Origin: Escherichia coli
GTDB taxonomy: Bacteria; Pseudomonadota; Gammaproteobacteria; Enterobacterales; Enterobacteriaceae
Assembly (NCBI RefSeq): GCF_013315695.1
Contig: NZ_CP054355.1
DNA: 64,000 nucleotides
Direction: 5' to 3' (one strand)
Both the position numbers and the translations under genes were made by a program. Every line of letters starts with the position of its first letter. The first letter of the stretch is position 1. A model generated the notes under the pieces. That model was given only the letters and a program-made list of their open reading frames with translations, ran no database searches and was not told the DNA's origin. Positions 1 to 12,502 of the stretch are shown here, piece by piece.

Positions 1-978
1 GTGGATAAGTCGTCCGGTGAGCTGGTGACACTGACACCAAACAATAACAACACCGTACAACCTGTGGCGCTGATGCGTCTGGGCGTCTTTGTACCTACCC
101 TTAAGTCACTGAAGAACAGTAAAAAAAATACACTGTCACGCACCGATGCCACGGAAGAACTGACGCGTCTTTCTCTGGCCCGTGCAGAAGGATTCGATAA
201 GGTTGAGATCACCGGCCCCCGGCTGGATATGGATAACGATTTCAAGACCTGGGTGGGGATCATTCATTCCTTTGCCCGCCATAACGTGATTGGTGACAAA
301 GTTGAACTGCCTTTTGTCGAGTTTGCAAAACTGTGTGGTATACCCTCAAGCCAGTCATCACGCAGGCTGCGTGAGCGCATCAGCCCTTCCCTGAAACGCA
401 TTGCCGGTACCGTGATCTCCTTTTCCCGCACCGATGAGAAGCACACCCGGGAATACATCACCCATCTGGTACAGTCAGCCTACTACGATACTGAACGGGA
501 TATTGTTCAGTTACAGGCTGATCCCCGCCTTTTTGAACTGTACCAGTTTGACAGAAAGGTCCTTCTTCAGCTTAAGGCGATTAATGCCCTGAAGCGACGG
601 GAGTCCGCCCAGGCACTTTACACCTTTATAGAGAGCCTGCCCCGGGATCCGGCACCGATATCGCTGGCGCGGCTGCGTGCACGCCTCAATCTGAAGTCTC
701 CTGTATTTTCCCAGAACCAGACGGTCAGACGGGCAATGGAGCAGTTGCGCGAGATTGGATATCTTGATTACACGGAGATCCAGCGGGGGCGGACAAAATT
801 CTTCTGTATTCACTACCGGCGTCCCCGGTTAAAAGCGCCGAATGATGAGAGTAAGGAAAATCAGTTGCCACCTTCACCTGCGGAAAAAATCAGTCCGGAG
901 ATGGCGGAGAAGCTTGCCCTGCTTGAAAAACTGGGCATCACGCTGGATGACCTGGAAAAACTCTTCAAATCCCGCTGA
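1..978 (+). CDS. repA: RepFIB-type plasmid replication initiator RepA (325 aa)
   Basis: ORF track 1..978 (GTG start at window edge); sequence recognised as IncFIB RepA ([17 protein letters not shown]...); iteron-like repeats immediately downstream. Confidence 0.85.
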
Positions 979-981
979 ACA

Positions 982-1152
982 TAAACTGTAGTCAGATAAG
1001 AGAGACTCTTTACTGACTACAGTTTATATTAACAGGTGCAGTGAGTGATGTGCTCACTGTAGTTTATATTCAGTTTCCTGCTGCACTGTCTGTGGCTGAG
1101 CTGCCATCTGCCTGTTCCTTACATAAAACACGGCTTACTCACTACAGTTTAT
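982..1152. repeat. RepFIB iteron-like repeats (ctgactacagtttat-type copies, one inverted)
   Basis: Copies of a ~15-20 bp motif read directly at about 982-996 (inverted), 1012-1030, 1054-1070 and 1137-1152. Confidence 0.5.
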
Positions 1153-1220
1153 CTACCTGCTATAGCTTATGTTATGCCTGTTCTGCTTACCTCCGCTTAT
1201 ATAAGGAAGAGCGTATGCTG

Positions 1221-1961
1221 TCACTTCAGGGGAGGCAGTGTACGCAGGATCTCTGCAGCATCGCGCCCGTCACCTGTGAAAGGCACTGCCAGCGTGGCAG
1301 CCATATCCAGCGCAAAAACTCTGGTATAAACCTCCATCGAACGTGGATCCCTGTGACCAGCCAGTGCCTGGATGACTTTCCGGGGCTGGCGGTGATAGAG
1401 CATGTGCATGATATAGCTGTGCCGGAAGGTATGTGGTGTGACCGGAATCGAAAAATGCACGCCGTCAGCTTCAGCCCGCTTCACCGCCTGTTTCAGCCAG
1501 TTGCGCATTGTCTCATCCGTGACCGGCCATAACGGCTCCCGCCGGCGGGGCCGGGTGGTGATCATCCAGCTTTCCATCTGCCTGACATAGCTTATATCTG
1601 TCAGCGGAACCAGGCGCACTTCATCTTTTGGCGGGCGTCCGCGTCGCGCACGCACTTTTTCGGACAGGATCCGCACAAACGGTCTTACTCCATCCAGGTC
1701 AAATGATTCCGGCGTCAGCATCCGGGCTTCGCCAATACGCATTCCGGTATTCCAGAGGGTGGCGAACAGCATATGGTGACGCTGATCCGGCATATAGAAA
1801 AGAAGGGCACTCACTTCCGGGGCCAGCAGGTAGGCCGGTGTGGCCCCCGTGGAAGTGGCCATTCTTCTCAGGGAGAGCGCTGTTGCAAAATCCACCCCCG
1901 GCGCAATGGGTAACAGGGAGACGCGTTCTGGTGAATTCTGCAGGGGAATGACATTGTTCAT
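1221..1961 (-). CDS. int: Tyrosine site-specific recombinase (phage integrase family) associated with RepFIB
   Basis: 246-aa ORF with C-terminal R...HxxR...Y catalytic-type motifs (HTFRHSY, GHRD...Y); position next to RepFIB as in F-like plasmids. Confidence 0.75.
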
Positions 1962-2341
1962 GAGTTATTTTTCACGTAGCACACGCACTGTTTATGGATA
2001 CAGGTATTCTGACCTGAACGCCCGGATCCTTCCACGACAATAAATCGCAGCGCGCGGATCCTTTTGTTTGATTATCACGCATTATTGCGGGTAAAACCAA
2101 ATGCGTAAAGGCGCATTTTGCCGCAGGGATCCCGTCTTAAGCCAGTCATGGTGCGGGCTGAGAGCTGGTTTACCGTTTTTGGGAGAATTGGGGTAATGCC
2201 AGGAACAGGCAGATACGGAGAAAAATCCTGCAGATAACCTTCTACGACAACTGAAGGTGTCTGACGCCATATTCTTAGCTACTTCTCAGTTTTAAGGCGG
2301 CTTAGTCACAACATAAGGTTATGCATAATAAGCATATTTTA

Positions 2342-2361
2342 TTATGTTATGTTATGTTATG
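2342..2361. repeat. Pentanucleotide tandem repeat (TTATG)x4
   Basis: Read directly: ttatgttatgttatgttatg in an AT-rich intergenic region. Confidence 0.6.
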
Positions 2362-2577
2362 GTCTTGTTCATGCATGAACTGTTATCTATTCAGTCACTT
2401 TTAACGTTTTATATCATACTGCATATGACACAATCATCTTCTATATTCAGATTAAAAATATTATGACGACGATCAAATAAATTTAGTGAAATCATTACTT
2501 ACAATAATATGTTTATGACATAATTTATCAAAAATATCCGACAACCTTCCTGAAAGGTTACTGCGAGGAGTCAAACA

Positions 2578-2640
2578 ATGAAGTGTAATAACTTATTCAC
2601 TCTTTTTTATGCTCTCTTTATAGCAAAACCAGGAAGTTAA
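2578..2640 (+). CDS. Putative 20-codon small ORF (MKCNNLFTLFYALFIAKPGS) preceded by GAGGAG Shine-Dalgarno
   Basis: Manual reading: GAGGAG about 8 nt upstream of ATG; stop TAA abuts the ATG of the following membrane-protein ORF; below ORF-track size cutoff. Confidence 0.25.
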   Translation: MKCNNLFTLFYALFIAKPGS

Positions 2641-2641
2641 A

Positions 2642-3811
2642 ATGAATCAGAAGTGGAAGACGCTAATAGTTTCAGTATTAACACCATCAAGTATTATATC
2701 AGGGATTGCGTTGATAGTTCTCTGGGGATATTTCAGTCGTCTGGATCGACTTGATATTTTCTTTGATGTGATGAATATTAAAAGCATCTTGGTATTGGTT
2801 TGTTGTACAACTATTCTATCATTGATTATGATCATTTTTATTTTTTTTATAACATCTTTTTTTATACCAATAGTTATTCCTTATGATATAAAAAATCTTC
2901 CTGCTTACAATAAGATTCAGGGTAATTTTTTATCTGTAATGATGTTATCTGGCCTCTTCCCCATGGCCTTTATATACGTGTTATACTGTGCATTTGATTT
3001 TGACCAGAGTGTTAAAGATAACTCTGGCTGGTTATCTATTTTAAGTATAGGAGTACTAATAGTTGTTATTTCAGCCATAATAAACACGAGGTATCTTGAA
3101 TATGACTTATCGTTTAAAAATAATAGAATGAAACTGTTGAGACGTGTTCAGATCTATCTTGTCATTCCGTTGTCTATTGCTTTACTGGTGCATCTTCAGG
3201 TAATTCCACTGGAGATGGTTTTTAGGAATATTGAAACTTCAGATAAGAGTATTAATTTCAAAGTGATAGCTGAACTGGCTTTCATGTCATATTTTATTTT
3301 TATTCTGACAATACTTCCCGGCCTCATTTATCTAAAAATGAATCCACAGCATAAACTTTCTAAAAGAATTAGTTCTGCATTTGTCGCATCCTTGATGATA
3401 TTATTAGTTATATCGACTCAAATAACCGTATTACCAGTAATTTTTACCCATTCAGTTATTAAGCTCTCAGGTATAAGTGACTTCAAAATACATAGCTACA
3501 TTATTAAAACAAGTGAATATCCGGAGGAGTTTTTTTCCAATGCAGTATGGGGTAAAAAAAATATAAAACCGGGGGAATATTACTCTGTGCAGGCTGTTTC
3601 TATGTTTACGACAAACCAGTTTATTCTCCTTTGTCCCAAGGATATTATAAGGTTTTATCGGGAAAGCTGGAAGTTCGACCTGCTTAATGTAGACTTCGAT
3701 ACAAATACCAGGAAGAAACTCCAGGAAGAAGCAGCATATTGCGTACCAATTTCTGCAATATCTGTAAAACGATGGGATATGCCTCTTCAGGGCTCGAAAC
3801 CCTCAAATTAG
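2642..3811 (+). CDS. Hypothetical polytopic inner-membrane protein (about 8 predicted TM helices plus about 120-aa C-terminal soluble domain)
   Basis: ORF track 389 aa; long hydrophobic stretches; AT-rich codon usage; no family recognised. Confidence 0.5.
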   Translation: MNQKWKTLIVSVLTPSSIISGIALIVLWGYFSRLDRLDIFFDVMNIKSILVLVCCTTILSLIMIIFIFFITSFFIPIVIPYDIKNLPAYNKIQGNFLSVMMLSGLFPMAFIYVLYCAFDFDQSVKDNSGWLSILSIGVLIVVISAIINTRYLEYDLSFKNNRMKLLRRVQIYLVIPLSIALLVHLQVIPLEMVFRNIETSDKSINFKVIAELAFMSYFIFILTILPGLIYLKMNPQHKLSKRISSAFVASLMILLVISTQITVLPVIFTHSVIKLSGISDFKIHSYIIKTSEYPEEFFSNAVWGKKNIKPGEYYSVQAVSMFTTNQFILLCPKDIIRFYRESWKFDLLNVDFDTNTRKKLQEEAAYCVPISAISVKRWDMPLQGSKPSN

Positions 3812-3889
3812 AAGGCCGCTCGTGCGACTGTATTAGATAGTAATGCGGTATGGAAAAATAGTGATGGCAAGATGAACTTGACTTGGCTA

Positions 3890-4141
<252 letters not shown>

Positions 4142-4657
4142 TTATTTCCGAACCTCGCCCTTGCCTGCGTAACCATCCGTCGCCCCCATCCTGTTTTCAG
4201 ACTGCGGAAAAAGGCAAGTTTTTATCCCCCCACAGAGATTCAATCATATATCGCGTGTTTTGGAAGTGACAGTTCTTATTCCTGAGAATACTGCATGTGC
4301 AACACACTCGGCATCCATCGATACCACTTTTATCTCCAATAGGCAGGATAAAAAACAAGACTGTGAATTAAAGTAATCGGCAAATGAATGAGTTAGAAGA
4401 TACTGAAAATGAATCAAGGACTAACCCCGTAGGGAATGAAAATAATAAAAGAACATCTTGTTTTTATTTTAATGAATGAGCATGTTCTTTTATATTAATA
4501 ACAAAACCTATCATTAAACAAAATGATGAATGACAGAGTTTTCTTTAAAATAGCTTATATTATCTTACAGTAGCTGACATAGTGCAATATAAATTATCAG
4601 CTATGCCATAACGGCTTAGCAGTGTCTAAGCGTAAGAATCAAGACTTCAGTTACAGT

Positions 4658-4873
4658 TTACTCACGGTAGAAATATTTAAGAGCACTAACAATACTGTGT
4701 GTATAGTTTAGTTTTTTTAGGCATAGGCAAAAATAACTAATGGAAACATTGTTCCTTTCACAACTTTCTTGCTTTGAATAACCATCAACCAAATACTCCT
4801 TAAGAGCCATGATGTTTTTTTTACTTCTGATTGGTGATATTTCAATTAAAAGTGAAAAGTGTTCTCCATTCAT
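4658..4873 (-). CDS. PapB/FaeB/PefB-family fimbrial operon regulator (orphan)
   Basis: ORF 4658..4930; segment EHFSLLIEISPIRSKKNIMALKEYLVDGYSKQESCERNNVSISYF parallels PapB (HFFLLIGISSIHSDRVILAMKDYLVGGHSRKEVCEKYQMNNGYF); likely start at internal Met. Confidence 0.55.
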   Translation of the reverse strand: MNGEHFSLLIEISPIRSKKNIMALKEYLVDGYSKQESCERNNVSISYFCLCLKKLNYTHSIVSALKYFYRE

Positions 4874-5454
4874 ACATGATTGAATTAGCTCTGTATTAAA
4901 GTTATTTCTTGGATAGGGGGAGGGAGTCATATATTATCTAACCTTATTTTTCTATTAAAGAATTGAAATAGAATAGACAGAAATGCTATTGGAGTAAGTA
5001 TTTGATAGTAGGTAATTTACGCTCCTATATAGACTATTGTTACTCATATAATATTTTGGGGTGGCTTATGTTGTGACAGCGCCAGTTGTTAAAAACGTTG
5101 TACCGTCATACGGGATAATATAGAACAACCAATAACGATTACTGGTCTATGACCACCGCCAGAGATACAGAAAAGCTTTATCTGTAATGAGCTCAACTAT
5201 ATATCCCGTCAACTGCTGGTTCAGAGCGTTGTCGTAAAAATCCTGTGCAAATAAATTAGTCATATATCAAGCCATTTACGCGGTAACTGGCAGGTCTGAA
5301 ATTTAACCTCCTGACGATGCAGGCTTGCATACATCCATAGTTTTACTTTGGTATGTGACTCTAAGTATGTAGATCATCAGTCCGGCATGGAACGCTGTTT
5401 TGACCCGCTAAAATCCTTACGGAAAAGTAAGGATGTGGATTTGCCCCTATATTT

Positions 5455-5568
5455 CCAGTCATCGGTTCGTCTGAGAATGACGTGCAACTGCGCACGCGAC
5501 ACCCGGAGACAACGGCTGACTAAGCTTACTCCCCATCCCCGGGCAATAAGGGCGCGTGCGCTATCCAC
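5455..5568 (-). pseudogene. insD: IS2 insD 5' fragment (truncated transposase OrfB)
   Basis: [38 protein letters not shown] then unrelated sequence. Confidence 0.7.
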
Positions 5569-5891
5569 TTTTTTGCACGCCCATATTCAACGGCTTCTTT
5601 AAGGAGTTCATTTTCCATCGTTTTTTTGCCGAGCAGGCGCTGGAGTTCTTTAATCTGCTTCATGGCAGCAGCAAGTTCAGAGGCAGGAACGACCTGTTCT
5701 CCTGCGGCCACAGCAGTAAGACTTCCCTCCTGGTATTGCTTGCGCCAGAGAAATAACTGGCTGGCTGCCACACCGTGTTGCCGGGCAACAAGGGAGACCG
5801 TCATTCCCGGTTCAAAGCTCTGCTGAACAATAGCGATCTTTTCCTGTGTAGTACGCCGTCTGCGTTTCTCCGGTCCTAAGACATCAATCAT
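5526..5891 (-). CDS. insC: IS2 transposase OrfA (InsC)
   Basis: Protein [56 protein letters not shown]... matches IS2 InsC. Confidence 0.85.
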
Positions 5892-6132
5892 CTGTTCTCC
5901 AATGACTAGTCTAAAAACTAGTATTAAGACTATCACTTATTTAAGTGATATTGGTTGTCTGGAGATTCAGGGGGCCAGTCTAAATTCCGTATTGCTGGTT
6001 CTTTATCGGTAGAAAAATCAATATCCATAGCATCGGTCGCAGGCGCTGATACATTGCAGAGCGACCGGGTATTAGAGTCGCTATTCACTGGTTATCACTG
6101 AACGCTGCGTGATCAGGGTTGCATTAATAAAA

Positions 6133-6152
6133 TGATATGTTATAACATATCA
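6133..6152. promoter_or_regulatory. Perfect 20-bp palindrome tgatatgttataacatatca, candidate Fur-like operator upstream of heme receptor gene
   Basis: Read directly; perfect dyad symmetry, AT-rich hexamers resembling Fur-box repeats; 21 bp upstream of ORF start. Confidence 0.35.
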
Positions 6153-6172
6153 ATATTAACATATATTTTCGC

Positions 6173-8143
6173 ATGTATATGAACGTAATCAGAAACGTCA
6201 TTTGTACATTAATCATACTCCCGATAGGGTTACAGGCAGAGACCAGTCATTCTTCTATGGCTAAAGATACAATCACCGTTGTCGCGACAGGAAATCAGAA
6301 CACGGTATTTGAAACGCCGTCAATGGTCAGTGTCGTCACGAATGACACGCCATGGAGTCAGAATGCGGTCACATCAGCCGGCATGCTGAAAGGTGTTGCC
6401 GGTCTCAGCCAGACTGGTGCAGGACGGACCAATGGGCAGACCTTTAATCTACGCGGCTATGACAAAAGCGGGGTACTTGTTCTTGTTGACGGCATCCGTC
6501 AACTCAGTGACATGGCAAAAAGCAGTGGCACTTATCTGGATCCGGCACTCGTCAAACGTATCGAAGTTGTCCGCGGACCAAACTCCAGTCTGTACGGCAG
6601 TGGCGGGCTGGGAGGTGTTGTGGACTTCAGAACTGCCGATGCAGCAGATTTCCTTCCCCCCGGAGAGACAAACGGTTTAAGTCTGTGGGGAAATATCGCC
6701 AGTGGTGACCACAGCACAGGCTCGGGGCTCACCTGGTTCGGTAAAACCGGAAAAACAGATGCGCTCCTTTCTGTCATTATGCGTAAAAGAGGTAATATCT
6801 ATCAAAGTGATGGTGAGCGCGCACCTAACAAGGAAAAACCTGCAGCCCTGTTTGCGAAAGGCTCTGTCGGTATAACAGACAGTAACAAAGCAGGTGCCAG
6901 CTTGCGTCTCTACCGGAATAACACCACTGAACCGGGCAATCCCACTCAGACACATGGTGACAGCGGCCTGCGTGACAGAAAAACAGTACAAAATGACGTA
7001 CAGTTCTGGTACCAGTACGCTCCTGTGGATAACAGCCTCATCAATGTAAAGTCAACTTTATATCTCAGTGATATCACTATCAAGACAAACGGTCACAACA
7101 AAACGGCAGAATGGAGAAACAACAGAACCTCCGGTGTTAATGTTGTCAACAGGAGTCATACTCTGATTTTTCCGGGAGCCCATCAGTTAAGTTATGGCGC
7201 TGAATATTACCGTCAGCAGCAGAAGCCAGAAGGCTCTGCCACACTATATCCGGAAGGAAACATTGACTTTACATCGTTGTATTTCCAGGATGAAATGACA
7301 ATGAAAAGCTACCCGGTTAACATTATCGTCGGTTCCCGCTATGACCGGTACAAGAGCTTCAATCCCCGTGCCGGAGAACTGAAAGCCGAACGCCTGTCCC
7401 CAAGGGCGGCGATTTCAGTCTCACCGACAGACTGGCTGATGATGTACGGCTCCATATCCTCTGCATTCCGTGCCCCCACAATGGCAGAAATGTACAGGGA
7501 TGATGTACATTTTTACCGCAAGGGTAAACCCAATTACTGGGTACCTAACCTTAATCTGAAACCAGAAAATAACATTACCCGTGAGATTGGCGCAGGTATT
7601 CAACTGGACGGCCTGCTTACAGGCAATGATCGGCTGCAGTTGAAAGGCGGATATTTCGGAACGGATGCCAGAAACTATATTGCCACGCGCGTGGATATGA
7701 AACGGATGCGTTCTTATTCTTATAATGTATCCCGGGCCCGTATCTGGGGATGGGATATGCAGGGAAATTACCAGTCTGATTATTTTGACTGGATGCTTTC
7801 TTATAACCGCACGGAAAGTATGGATGCCAGCAGCAGGGAATGGCTGGGCTCCGGCAATCCTGACACACTCATCAGTGACATCAGTATACCTGTTGGTCAT
7901 GGAGGAGTTTCTGCCGGATGGCGTGCTGAACTTTCGGCAGCAGCCACGCATGTGAAAAAAGGCGATCCCCATCAGGCTGGCTATGCCGTACATTCCTTTT
8001 CACTGTCTTATAAGCCTGTAAGTGTTAAAGGCTTTGAGGCATCAGTGACTCTGGATAATGCCTTCAACAAGCTTGCCATGAATGGCAAAGGAGTGCCGCT
8101 TTCAGGCAGAACTGTCAGTCTTTATACCCGTTATCAGTGGTAA
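6173..8143 (+). CDS. TonB-dependent outer-membrane heme/hemoglobin receptor (ChuA/ShuA family)
   Basis: 656 aa; N-terminal TonB-box-like DTITVVA; blocks YGAEYYRQQQKPEG, SAFRAPTMAEMY, YWVPNLNLKPE and C-terminal YQW closely parallel ChuA. Confidence 0.8.
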   Translation: MYMNVIRNVICTLIILPIGLQAETSHSSMAKDTITVVATGNQNTVFETPSMVSVVTNDTPWSQNAVTSAGMLKGVAGLSQTGAGRTNGQTFNLRGYDKSGVLVLVDGIRQLSDMAKSSGTYLDPALVKRIEVVRGPNSSLYGSGGLGGVVDFRTADAADFLPPGETNGLSLWGNIASGDHSTGSGLTWFGKTGKTDALLSVIMRKRGNIYQSDGERAPNKEKPAALFAKGSVGITDSNKAGASLRLYRNNTTEPGNPTQTHGDSGLRDRKTVQNDVQFWYQYAPVDNSLINVKSTLYLSDITIKTNGHNKTAEWRNNRTSGVNVVNRSHTLIFPGAHQLSYGAEYYRQQQKPEGSATLYPEGNIDFTSLYFQDEMTMKSYPVNIIVGSRYDRYKSFNPRAGELKAERLSPRAAISVSPTDWLMMYGSISSAFRAPTMAEMYRDDVHFYRKGKPNYWVPNLNLKPENNITREIGAGIQLDGLLTGNDRLQLKGGYFGTDARNYIATRVDMKRMRSYSYNVSRARIWGWDMQGNYQSDYFDWMLSYNRTESMDASSREWLGSGNPDTLISDISIPVGHGGVSAGWRAELSAAATHVKKGDPHQAGYAVHSFSLSYKPVSVKGFEASVTLDNAFNKLAMNGKGVPLSGRTVSLYTRYQW

Positions 8144-8149
8144 CAAATC

Positions 8150-8941
8150 ATGATGAAAAATACAGGTTATATCTTAGCTCTTTGTCTGACAGCATCGGGG
8201 CATGTCCTGGCCCACGATGTCTGGATTACAGGTAAACAGGCAGAGAACAACATTACCGCAGAGATTGGTTATGGTCATAATTTCCCCTCAAAGGGCACAA
8301 TTCCTGACAGAAGGAATTTCTTTGAAAATCCCCGGATTTATAACGGGAAAGAGACAATAACACTGAAGCCAGCGTCCACGGATTATGTCTATAAAACTGA
8401 GTCTGCAAGCAAAGATAATGGCTACGTTTTGTCAACATATATGAAACCGGGATACTGGTCGAGAACCTCTTCAGGATGGAAACCGGTCAGCCGGGAGGGC
8501 AGAAATGATGTGGCTTACTGTGAGTTTGTCACTAAATATGCGAAATCTTTTATTCCTGGTGAACAGCAGATGCCAGCACAACTCTATCAGTCTCCAACGG
8601 GGCATGAGCTTGAAATCATTCCGTTATCCGATATAAGTCGTTTCAGTGAAGATGTGAAGCTGAAAGTCCTGTATAAAACGTCCCCGCTCGCCGGAGCTAT
8701 CATGGAGCTTGACTCGGTCAGTTATCTGAAATCATCCCGTCATACTCATGCAGTTGAGCACAAACATCCTGTTCATAAAGCAGAACTCACCTTTGTAACT
8801 AATGAGGATGGTATCGTCACAGTACCTTCTCTTCATATTGGACAGTGGCTGGCGAAAGTCCAAAATAAGAAAAGTTTTCAGGACAAAAGCCTGTGTGATG
8901 AAACTGTCGATGTGGCAACTTTAAGTTTCTCCCGAAATTAA
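8150..8941 (+). CDS. Secreted/periplasmic protein, possibly DUF4198-like partner of TonB-dependent receptor
   Basis: 263 aa with signal peptide and mature start AHDVWI; 6 bp downstream of receptor gene; family assignment from memory only. Confidence 0.4.
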   Translation: MMKNTGYILALCLTASGHVLAHDVWITGKQAENNITAEIGYGHNFPSKGTIPDRRNFFENPRIYNGKETITLKPASTDYVYKTESASKDNGYVLSTYMKPGYWSRTSSGWKPVSREGRNDVAYCEFVTKYAKSFIPGEQQMPAQLYQSPTGHELEIIPLSDISRFSEDVKLKVLYKTSPLAGAIMELDSVSYLKSSRHTHAVEHKHPVHKAELTFVTNEDGIVTVPSLHIGQWLAKVQNKKSFQDKSLCDETVDVATLSFSRN

Positions 8942-9003
8942 CAATACTATTCCCTGCCCTGAAATTGTAAGCGTGCAGCAAGAACCGTATTGACGGGGAT
9001 GTG

Positions 9004-9522
9004 TTATTCAGTCGGCAGTGCTACGCGCCAGGGGAGCAGTTCGCCGACCCGGTTTATCGGCCAGTCGGCTATGACGTCAAGGACATAGCGGAGGTAGCTT
9101 TCTGGCTCCACTCCGTTCAGTTTGCACGTCCCGATCAGGCTGTACAGCAGCGCTCCCCGCTCTCCTCCATGATCCGAACCGAAGAACAGGTAGTTTTTGC
9201 GGCCCAGACTGACCATCCGCAACGCATTTTCAGCGATGTTATTGTCCGCCTCAGCCCAGCCATCATCTGCATAGTACGTCAGCGCCGGCCACTGGTTCAG
9301 GGCGTATGCGAACGCTTTCGCCAGTTCTGAGTGTCGCGACAGGGTTTTCATCTTTTCACGCAGCCAGCTTTCCAGGGATTTCAGCAGCGGTTTCGTTTTC
9401 AACTGACGTTCGGCAAGGCGCTGCTCCGCCGTCATTCCCCTTATCTCTGCCTCGATGGCGTACAGTTCGCCGATCCGTTTCAGCGCTTCCTCCGTCAGGG
9501 CTGACGGGGTGCGAACGTGCAC
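9004..9522 (-). pseudogene. IS66-family transposase (orfC) C-terminal part
   Basis: Contains ...[10 protein letters not shown]...[42 protein letters not shown]... continuing the frame broken by IS100. Confidence 0.75.
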
Positions 9523-9547
9523 ATCGTGGATTTTACGGCGGGCGTGA

Positions 9548-12502
<2,955 letters not shown>

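Follow-up and report, generated by a model that had tools for sequence, protein, structure and literature searches.

The window analysed here, a 64,000-nt stretch of Escherichia coli DNA (contig NZ_CP054355.1 of assembly GCF_013315695.1), contains within 5 kb of RepFIB a gene for a PapB-family regulator that, unlike a typical member of this family, does not stand at the head of an adhesin operon; hence we call it an orphan. The gene is not new: it is the already published papB/pefB paralogue of the pMB2/pUTI89-type IncF (FIA/FIB) plasmids. We consider it probable that this known orphan regulator is kept by selection and acts in trans on chromosomal adhesin loci, above all on the type 1 fimbrial (fim) system, which it would drive towards the OFF state. 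Our contribution to the published work is modest, and consists of the indications of purifying selection, the boundaries of the module that contains the gene, the lack of a tie to the neighbouring membrane-protein gene, and the kinship to TosR-like proteins.

The deduced product matched the Pfam profile PF03333 (PapB), described as "adhesin biosynthesis transcription regulatory protein", with E=1.3e-32 and 112.1 bits over profile positions 15–91 of 91; the gathering score of the profile is 29.4 bits, and the match is far above chance expectation for a stretch of 32% G+C. Among solved structures, the only one found by sequence was FocB (PDB 3m8j; E=2e-10). An AlphaFold2 model built from a 39-sequence alignment shows four helices with a mean pLDDT of 88.1, and its top matches in the PDB were the two chains of FocB (3m8j; TM 0.81–0.83, rmsd 1.8 Å, 79 columns, 35% identity), followed at a great distance by the next fold matches (KorA). 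Membership of the PapB family is secure, as the first-pass annotation of this DNA had held in placing a PapB/PefB-like regulator gene here; its proviso, a failure to align to PapB-family proteins, is contradicted by the profile match. The PapB/FocB-fold domain comprises residues ~19–90, and the N-terminal ~18 residues are variable. Within the domain, C57, F25, L28, S36, L47, V48, G50, Y66 and Y88 show little or no variation among the 39 family members. C57 is the equivalent of PapB C65, and K53 stands at the position of PapB R61, as in TosR-like members; this correspondence, with R61 and C65 being needed for DNA binding in PapB, is taken from the literature (PMC7734786). At the positions of PapB L82 and F83 the regulator has Leu and Asn, respectively. 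Judging from the model, the regulator is a small four-helix protein of FocB fold that is predicted to bind DNA.

The same coding sequence (CDS) is annotated as WP_001322642.1 in the near-identical plasmid pEco15-2 (NZ_CP047712.1), which was also the best match in PLSDB to the first 12 kb of the window (99.96% identity over positions 1–12000); the second half of the window matches tra/RepFII regions in PLSDB at 96–98%. A 2025 review of PapB-family regulators gives this very accession for the PapB-family protein of pMB2, as a non-fimbrial member, and enters the pUTI89 counterpart separately as Q1R1Z3. The primary description named the gene OrfG (Monarrez & Okeke 2020, BMC Res Notes 13:565; PMC7734786), and the cloning primers published there match exactly at 4909–4927(−) and 4661–4684(+), at both ends of the open reading frame (ORF). 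In pMB2, the gene is flanked at both ends by mobility genes and has a G+C content below that of its surroundings (PMC7734786). Thus, the gene from the window and OrfG coincide in protein accession, primer sites and IncF plasmid setting, as well as in lying in a low-G+C stretch between mobility genes, with heme receptor and 'NikM' (DUF4198) genes adjoining. There is no substantive difference between them, the plasmid in the window being another member of the same group, with cjrABC-senB.

No genes for a pilin, usher, chaperone, two minor subunits or a PapI-type protein were found by tblastn in the 64-kb window (all E>1), using as queries the K88-type operon of a Salmonella plasmid, which is headed by its own PapB-like gene. 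Pfam scans agree, assigning the large ORFs of the window to RepFIB and a tyrosine recombinase, a heme-type TonB-dependent receptor and a DUF4198 protein, insertion sequence (IS) elements, a group II intron, cjrABC-senB, an iron-transport cluster, Tn3, RepFII and tra; the annotation of pEco15-2 is in accord, with IS, iron-uptake, cjrABC-senB, replication and tra genes and no adhesin operon. Likewise, neither next to the regulator nor anywhere else in the window did we find genes for an outer membrane efflux protein (OEP), an ATP-binding cassette (ABC) protein, a membrane fusion protein (MFP) or an RTX protein. The earlier statement that pilin, usher and chaperone genes are missing from both strands is therefore correct. 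Its proposal that a fimbrial operon was deleted at this place did not hold up, and we reject it for the immediate neighbourhood: a blastx search of the flanks (3812–4657 and 4931–5435), with the proteins encoded by K88-like, Longus, tos-like and Afa/Dr loci as references, matched only spurious ORFs located at the orthologous place in related loci, and nothing was left of a pilin, usher, chaperone or OEP gene; an adhesin operon adjoins the regulator in none of the three structural variants described below; and the nearest paralogues head tos-like operons for type I secretion rather than chaperone-usher ones. A Pap-type Dam/Lrp phase switch was also ruled out, since there are no paired GATC sites, with a single GATC, at 5372, between 4065 and 5835; nor did tblastn detect a PapI-like match, and with it a divergent papI-type gene, in the window. 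An upstream 65-aa ORF seen in two related loci (L002 and L005) was considered as a PapI-like partner and discarded, because it does not resemble PapI and its copy in the window contains a stop codon.

An earlier loss of more distant adhesin cargo from the plasmid backbone is possible, because some sibling plasmids carry such cargo. Four of the loci that we compared (L018–L021) and 29 PLSDB records, for example the plasmid of strain UPEC132 (NZ_CP040454.1; L025 4737–22198), have the same IncFIA/FIB backbone with the orphan and, in addition, a complete tos-like operon (TosR-like, TolC-like, ABC, HlyD-like and RTX-type proteins, and a LuxR/GerE regulator). The TosR-like protein from these plasmids has 100 aa and, over 66 residues, shares 59% identity with the orphan. 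Divergent from the tos-like operon is an Afa/Dr-type chaperone-usher operon with IS fragments in its 5′ regulatory region and no afaA/afaF-like ORF. Both operons lie about 10–25 kb from the orphan (the tos-like one at 10–20 kb on the 29 plasmids), past the heme receptor gene and a group II intron, and both are absent from the window.

The regulator is widespread. Of 5,426 complete E. coli genomes, 829 contain an 836-bp segment comprising the gene and its upstream sequence; 860 of its 864 places lie on plasmids, identity is 99% or higher in 793 records, and orthologues of the protein (at least 60% identity) are found in about 786 PLSDB plasmids. Comparison with the diverged variant from L019/L020 gave pS of 0.174 and pN of 0.032 for the gene. 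These changes are not evenly distributed: residues 19–90 differ from the L020 variant by six synonymous and one non-synonymous codon changes, and the first 18 residues by one synonymous and six non-synonymous changes. Identity to the same variant is 94% in the ORF, 90.5% in the 5′ flank and 89.6% in the 3′ flank. Because the changes in residues 19–90 are mostly synonymous, sequence comparison indicates purifying selection on the PapB domain and a gene that is not in decay. Some alleles are altered: one (P0008, from L005/L006) is truncated to 68 aa, with deletion of its 3′ end and of the membrane-protein gene, and two (P0013 and P0021) are frameshifted. A further allele (P0002, from L007/L008) is recombinant, having an unrelated 5′ region and other first ~22 residues joined to an identical C-terminal part.

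The gene is located in a module of ~1.6 kb with low G+C (about 3835–5435), between a module with the membrane-protein and integrase genes and a module with the heme receptor gene (Table 1). The surrounding low-G+C island (about 2200–5300; 30–33% G+C, versus 50% for the window) is composite. Upstream, collinearity of the native sequence with L005/L020, which have the IS2-free form, extends as far as the IS2 boundary at 5435, at the identity given above for the 5′ flank; the native sequence includes a sigma-70-like match at 5077–5048(−), obtained by a consensus scan that found fewer sites than in shuffled sequences. As the first-pass annotation had noted, an IS2 remnant lies ~0.5 kb away; its boundary is 505 bp upstream of the start codon and its transcription points towards the regulator gene. 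Positions 1–529 of IS2A align by blastn to 5982–5454 and positions 1304–1331 to 5463–5436, the two parts (1–529 and ~1304–1331) being joined at a CTGGA microhomology. The element retains both terminal repeats and an intact insC-like orfA (5526–5936, Pfam HTH_Tnp_1), with orfB truncated, and it is not bordered by a 5-bp target duplication. Downstream, the spacer between the regulator and the membrane-protein gene has about 39–44% G+C, above the rest of the island, and an 81-bp stretch of it (3960–4040) is missing from pSCU-105-1. Between 2000 and 6300 there was no Rfam match to a non-coding RNA at E≤1 and there were no notable repeats.

Three structural variants of this region were distinguished, none with adhesin structural genes adjoining the regulator. 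Variant A, present in the window and in hundreds of plasmids, contains the heme receptor gene, the small IS2 and the regulator. Variant B (L005, L018–L021) has no IS2 and carries instead 780 bp of other non-coding DNA, of 33% G+C, exactly between the positions of the IS2 ends of the window; variant A most plausibly arose from a B-like state through insertion of IS2 and loss of the 780 bp. Variant C, with six plasmids at no less than 95% identity, is represented by pSCU-105-1 (L002, NZ_CP051739.1) and pFII-FIB (L011, NZ_MN783745.1). Its homology to the window ends at 5412, and directly upstream of the regulator there is a gene for a 273-aa AraC/VirF/Rns-like protein (28% G+C; Pfam HTH_18/HTH_AraC), forming a pair of AraC-like and PapB-like regulators without structural genes; beyond this pair there is a different TonB-dependent receptor or a serine protease autotransporter (SPATE), with no conserved adjacency to the heme receptor. 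The AraC/VirF-like gene may be an ancestral partner or a later acquisition. A loss of it through the IS2 event is not supported: the 255 bp shared correspond to IS2 sequence alone and the outer flanks differ; additionally, the 780-bp DNA of variant B is unrelated and contains no AraC remnant. The SPATE (S6 peptidase) gene close to the regulator in pSCU-105-1 was likewise dismissed as a target, with IS2 and Tn3 fragments lying in between and the gene being absent from pFII-FIB.

Table 1. Position of the regulator gene, its flanks and neighbours in the window, and of related genes in two comparison settings
Feature	Position	Strand	Basis or remark
Orphan papB/pefB paralogue ('OrfG' of pMB2; WP_001322642.1)	4658..4930	−	90-aa ORF, ATG start, Pfam PapB
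Native 5′ region of the regulator, 505 bp, 37% G+C, presumed promoter	4931..5435	−	Collinear with IS2-free variant
3′ flank of the regulator module, non-coding, without recognisable gene remnant	3835..4657	−	Homology break at 3834, blastx
Internally deleted IS2, 547 bp	5436..5982	−	blastn versus IS2A of E. coli K-12 MG1655
Membrane protein, 389 aa, multi-pass, no Pfam or NCBIfam match	2642–3811	+	ORF
Heme receptor gene	6173–8143		ORF
AraC/VirF/Rns-like gene (variant C)	L002 6456–7277; L011 12001–12822	Same as regulator	36–39% identical to VirF
Longus (CS21) type IV pilus cluster, PapB-family gene then HilD/AraC-like gene	L003 5785–10427 (pWS1933D_83, NZ_CP035839.1)		

The published phenotypes provide the link to function. 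Removal of a 32-kb fragment of pMB2 that includes OrfG causes hyper-autoaggregation of DH5α, which is tempered by arabinose-induced expression of cloned OrfG from pBAD in the same strain; in a fim deletion host, the parental and the 32-kb-deleted plasmids no longer differ (PMC7734786). The deleted plasmid has also lost detectable transfer (PMC7734786). These authors also found the OrfG region to be common on plasmids of extraintestinal pathogenic E. coli (ExPEC), ST131 among them, and often unannotated (PMC7734786). In the mechanism that we favour, the regulator would most likely act in trans on the host chromosome and, like PapB, SfaB and TosR, would bind to AT-rich DNA in the regulatory regions of adhesin loci. 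The fim system would be pushed towards OFF by disturbance of FimB switching and/or an increase of fimE; fim-dependent autoaggregation of plasmid-receiving cells would be lowered, and the function of the F pilus might be favoured, for instance by unmasking of F pili, with a presumed benefit to conjugation. Going by its orientation, the orfB-less IS2 could also add to transcription of the regulator by read-through. The suggestion of the first-pass annotation that the regulator was recruited to control other genes agrees in its general form with the tempering of hyper-autoaggregation and with the loss of the effect in the fim deletion host, and is not supported in its choice of the adjacent membrane protein as a possible target.

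Several observations weigh against this preferred explanation. The regulator is only about 29–35% identical to PapB and FocB and TosR-like proteins are the nearest to it; one study describes a tosR mutant with normal expression of type 1 fimbriae and a defect in flagella (PMC10392849). The residue F83 of PapB, replaced by Asn in the regulator, contributes to fim switching (PMC7734786). Their support for a direct link to fim was called indirect by the authors of the OrfG study themselves, and their work consisted of over-expression from pBAD in DH5α, without electrophoretic mobility shift assay (EMSA), chromatin immunoprecipitation (ChIP), fimS orientation assay or a clean single-gene deletion (PMC7734786). 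Finally, the truncated and frameshifted alleles (P0008, P0013 and P0021) imply that the regulator is dispensable in some plasmids.

The same facts leave room for a wider formulation, which we put forward only tentatively and hold to be clearly less probable than an action centred on fim: the gene may be a plasmid 'host-reprogramming' regulator, split from a TosR-like ancestor and kept beside the RepFIB replicon because, in every new host, it adjusts surface structures encoded by the chromosome (type 1 fimbriae, perhaps also flagella and further adhesins) in favour of plasmid transfer or carriage, and it maybe serves as the unlinked regulator of the sibling Afa/Dr operon that lacks afaA/afaF. 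If this were true, it would be a widespread factor of plasmid-to-chromosome cross-talk in pandemic ExPEC lineages, with ~15% of complete E. coli genomes containing it.

The main rival explanation, to which we give somewhat less credence still, is a broader TosR-like regulon: the protein would be a general binder of AT-rich DNA acting on many acquired and surface loci (flagella via flhDC, P and F1C fimbriae, curli, Ag43, iron uptake), perhaps countering H-NS, and the fim-dependent effect on aggregation would be one indirect outcome of this instead of a dedicated role in the fim switch. A word-indexed protein search retrieved orthologues only, and paralogues were reached with an exhaustive HMMER search over 1.84 billion representatives, which gave 139 proteins at E≤0.001. 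The nearest non-orthologues (P0022, P0023 and P0024) are each encoded directly upstream of a gene for a TolC-like OEP, as is tosR, and that for P0023 is followed by OEP, ABC and MFP genes in the tosRCBD arrangement; another protein of the family, P0025, belongs to a K88-like operon. These three proteins and the 100-aa protein from L020 share 43–49% identity with the regulator over the full length and 58–59% in the core. This grouping agrees with the 2025 review, which places OrfG closest to TosR, and, according to the literature, TosR is a binder of AT-rich DNA with effects on pap, flagella and biofilm. Conversely, the clade joining the regulator with TosR-like proteins had a bootstrap of 38% in a neighbour-joining tree from 91 columns that did not contain TosR of CFT073 itself, the regulator is not directly upstream of tosC/tosB/tosD-like genes, none of which occur in the window, and the disappearance of the aggregation difference in the fim deletion strain points to fim as the main effector there (PMC7734786).

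Regulation of plasmid genes in cis or nearby is less likely, as is a dead relic, because of the data on selection, module boundaries and variants. The candidate targets would be the membrane-protein gene, the heme receptor/DUF4198 operon or, in sibling plasmids, the tos-like operon or the Afa/Dr operon without afaA. PapB-family proteins normally act on nearby promoters, and the regulator has the membrane-protein gene on one side and the heme receptor gene on the other, whether IS2 is present (variant A) or not (variant B); also, the Afa/Dr-like operon of UPEC132-type plasmids has IS fragments at the place of afaA/afaF, so an unlinked PapB-like regulator could serve it. Against this, the membrane-protein gene is a separate module, independent of the regulator. 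It is convergent with the regulator gene and 846 bp away from it, and it is found in about 1,298 plasmids, compared with about 786 for the regulator, that is, in about 500 more without the latter. It lies at or adjoining a tyrosine recombinase gene in pFUJ80155-2, pEC07-NDM-5 and an Enterobacter mcr-10 plasmid, and no PapB-like gene accompanies it there; the copies of the 389-aa protein from Enterobacter mcr-10 plasmids are 61–69% identical. In pFUJ80155-2 and pEC07-NDM-5, both from E. coli, homology to the window stops at 3834, just past the stop codon of the membrane-protein gene. This orientation, distance, independent spread and homology break all disfavour the membrane protein as the target named by the first-pass annotation. 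As for the heme receptor gene, the IS2 copy separates its promoter from the upstream region of the regulator in the window, and the adjacency is not conserved in variant C. The tos-like and Afa/Dr operons do not occur in the window at all, and the published phenotype was traced to fim on the chromosome and not to genes of the plasmid (PMC7734786). We therefore regard control in cis as unlikely. That the gene is a functionless relic of a lost adhesin operon, hitch-hiking by the RepFIB replicon, is very improbable: the absence of partner genes, the IS2 and other IS elements around it, the truncated and frameshifted alleles and the passive carriage that less than 5 kb to RepFIB would allow are outweighed by the almost exclusively synonymous substitutions in the PapB domain, an ORF better conserved than its flanks, the retention of all the near-invariant family residues in a confidently folded model, a phenotype upon expression (PMC7734786) and flanks with no trace of a deleted operon.

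Elsewhere in the window, a 205-aa ORF at 26022–26639(−), between IS3-type (25129–26019) and IS5-type (26693–27673) transposase genes, contains an autotransporter beta-domain only (Pfam PF03797, E=2.8e-10), and probably represents what is left of an autotransporter gene at its C-terminal end. The cjrABC-senB block (18283–24385) is inverted with respect to UPEC132-type plasmids and is flanked by inverted IS/group II intron copies at 13379–14509 and 24752–26061, which suggests that it was inverted by recombination between these repeats.

The gene deserves attention because it is carried by the IncF plasmids that dominate in ExPEC lineages and is contained in about 15% of the complete genomes of E. 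coli; a plasmid regulator that alters the adhesin programme of its host would be a clear case of cross-talk between plasmid and chromosome. It follows that virulence and adhesin profiling should count unlinked regulators besides structural operons, a point already present in the 2020 paper and in the 2025 review.

Comparison with known systems places the orphan among several types of PapB-family regulators. With PapB, SfaB and FocB it shares the Pfam family, the four-helix fold, the Cys equivalent to C65, a Lys for R61, and a reported trans effect on behaviour dependent on type 1 fimbriae. It differs from them in its low identity (~35% to the core of FocB, and 29% to PapB; PMC7734786), in being shorter (90 aa) with an unrelated N-terminus, and in not heading a chaperone-usher operon with a papI-type gene and a paired GATC/Lrp switch. 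TosR, from the tosRCBDAEF operon for a type I secretion system and RTX adhesin of uropathogenic E. coli (UPEC), represents its closest relatives by score and identity (58–59% in the core), whereas the orphan has no OEP, ABC, MFP or RTX genes beside it or in the window. PefB, from the pef operon of the Salmonella virulence plasmid, and the FaeB-like proteins of K88-type operons, such as those from pESI-like plasmids, are also plasmid-borne and 45–49% identical over the aligned part, but head intact chaperone-usher operons with PapI-type partners (PefI or FaeA).

Another counterpart is the PapB-like gene of the Longus (CS21) cluster from a plasmid of enterotoxigenic E. coli (ETEC), annotated as a PapB/FocB family regulator and which we take to be LngR. 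Its plasmid position, in the order RepFIB, int and PapB-like gene, is the same, and, like the orphan of variant C, it has an AraC-family gene as its partner. The two are 42% identical, and the Longus gene differs in heading a complete type IV pilus operon and in the reversed order of the pair, with the PapB-like gene first and the HilD-like gene second. The site downstream of the RepFIB integrase gene seems to have received adhesin-regulator cargo repeatedly.

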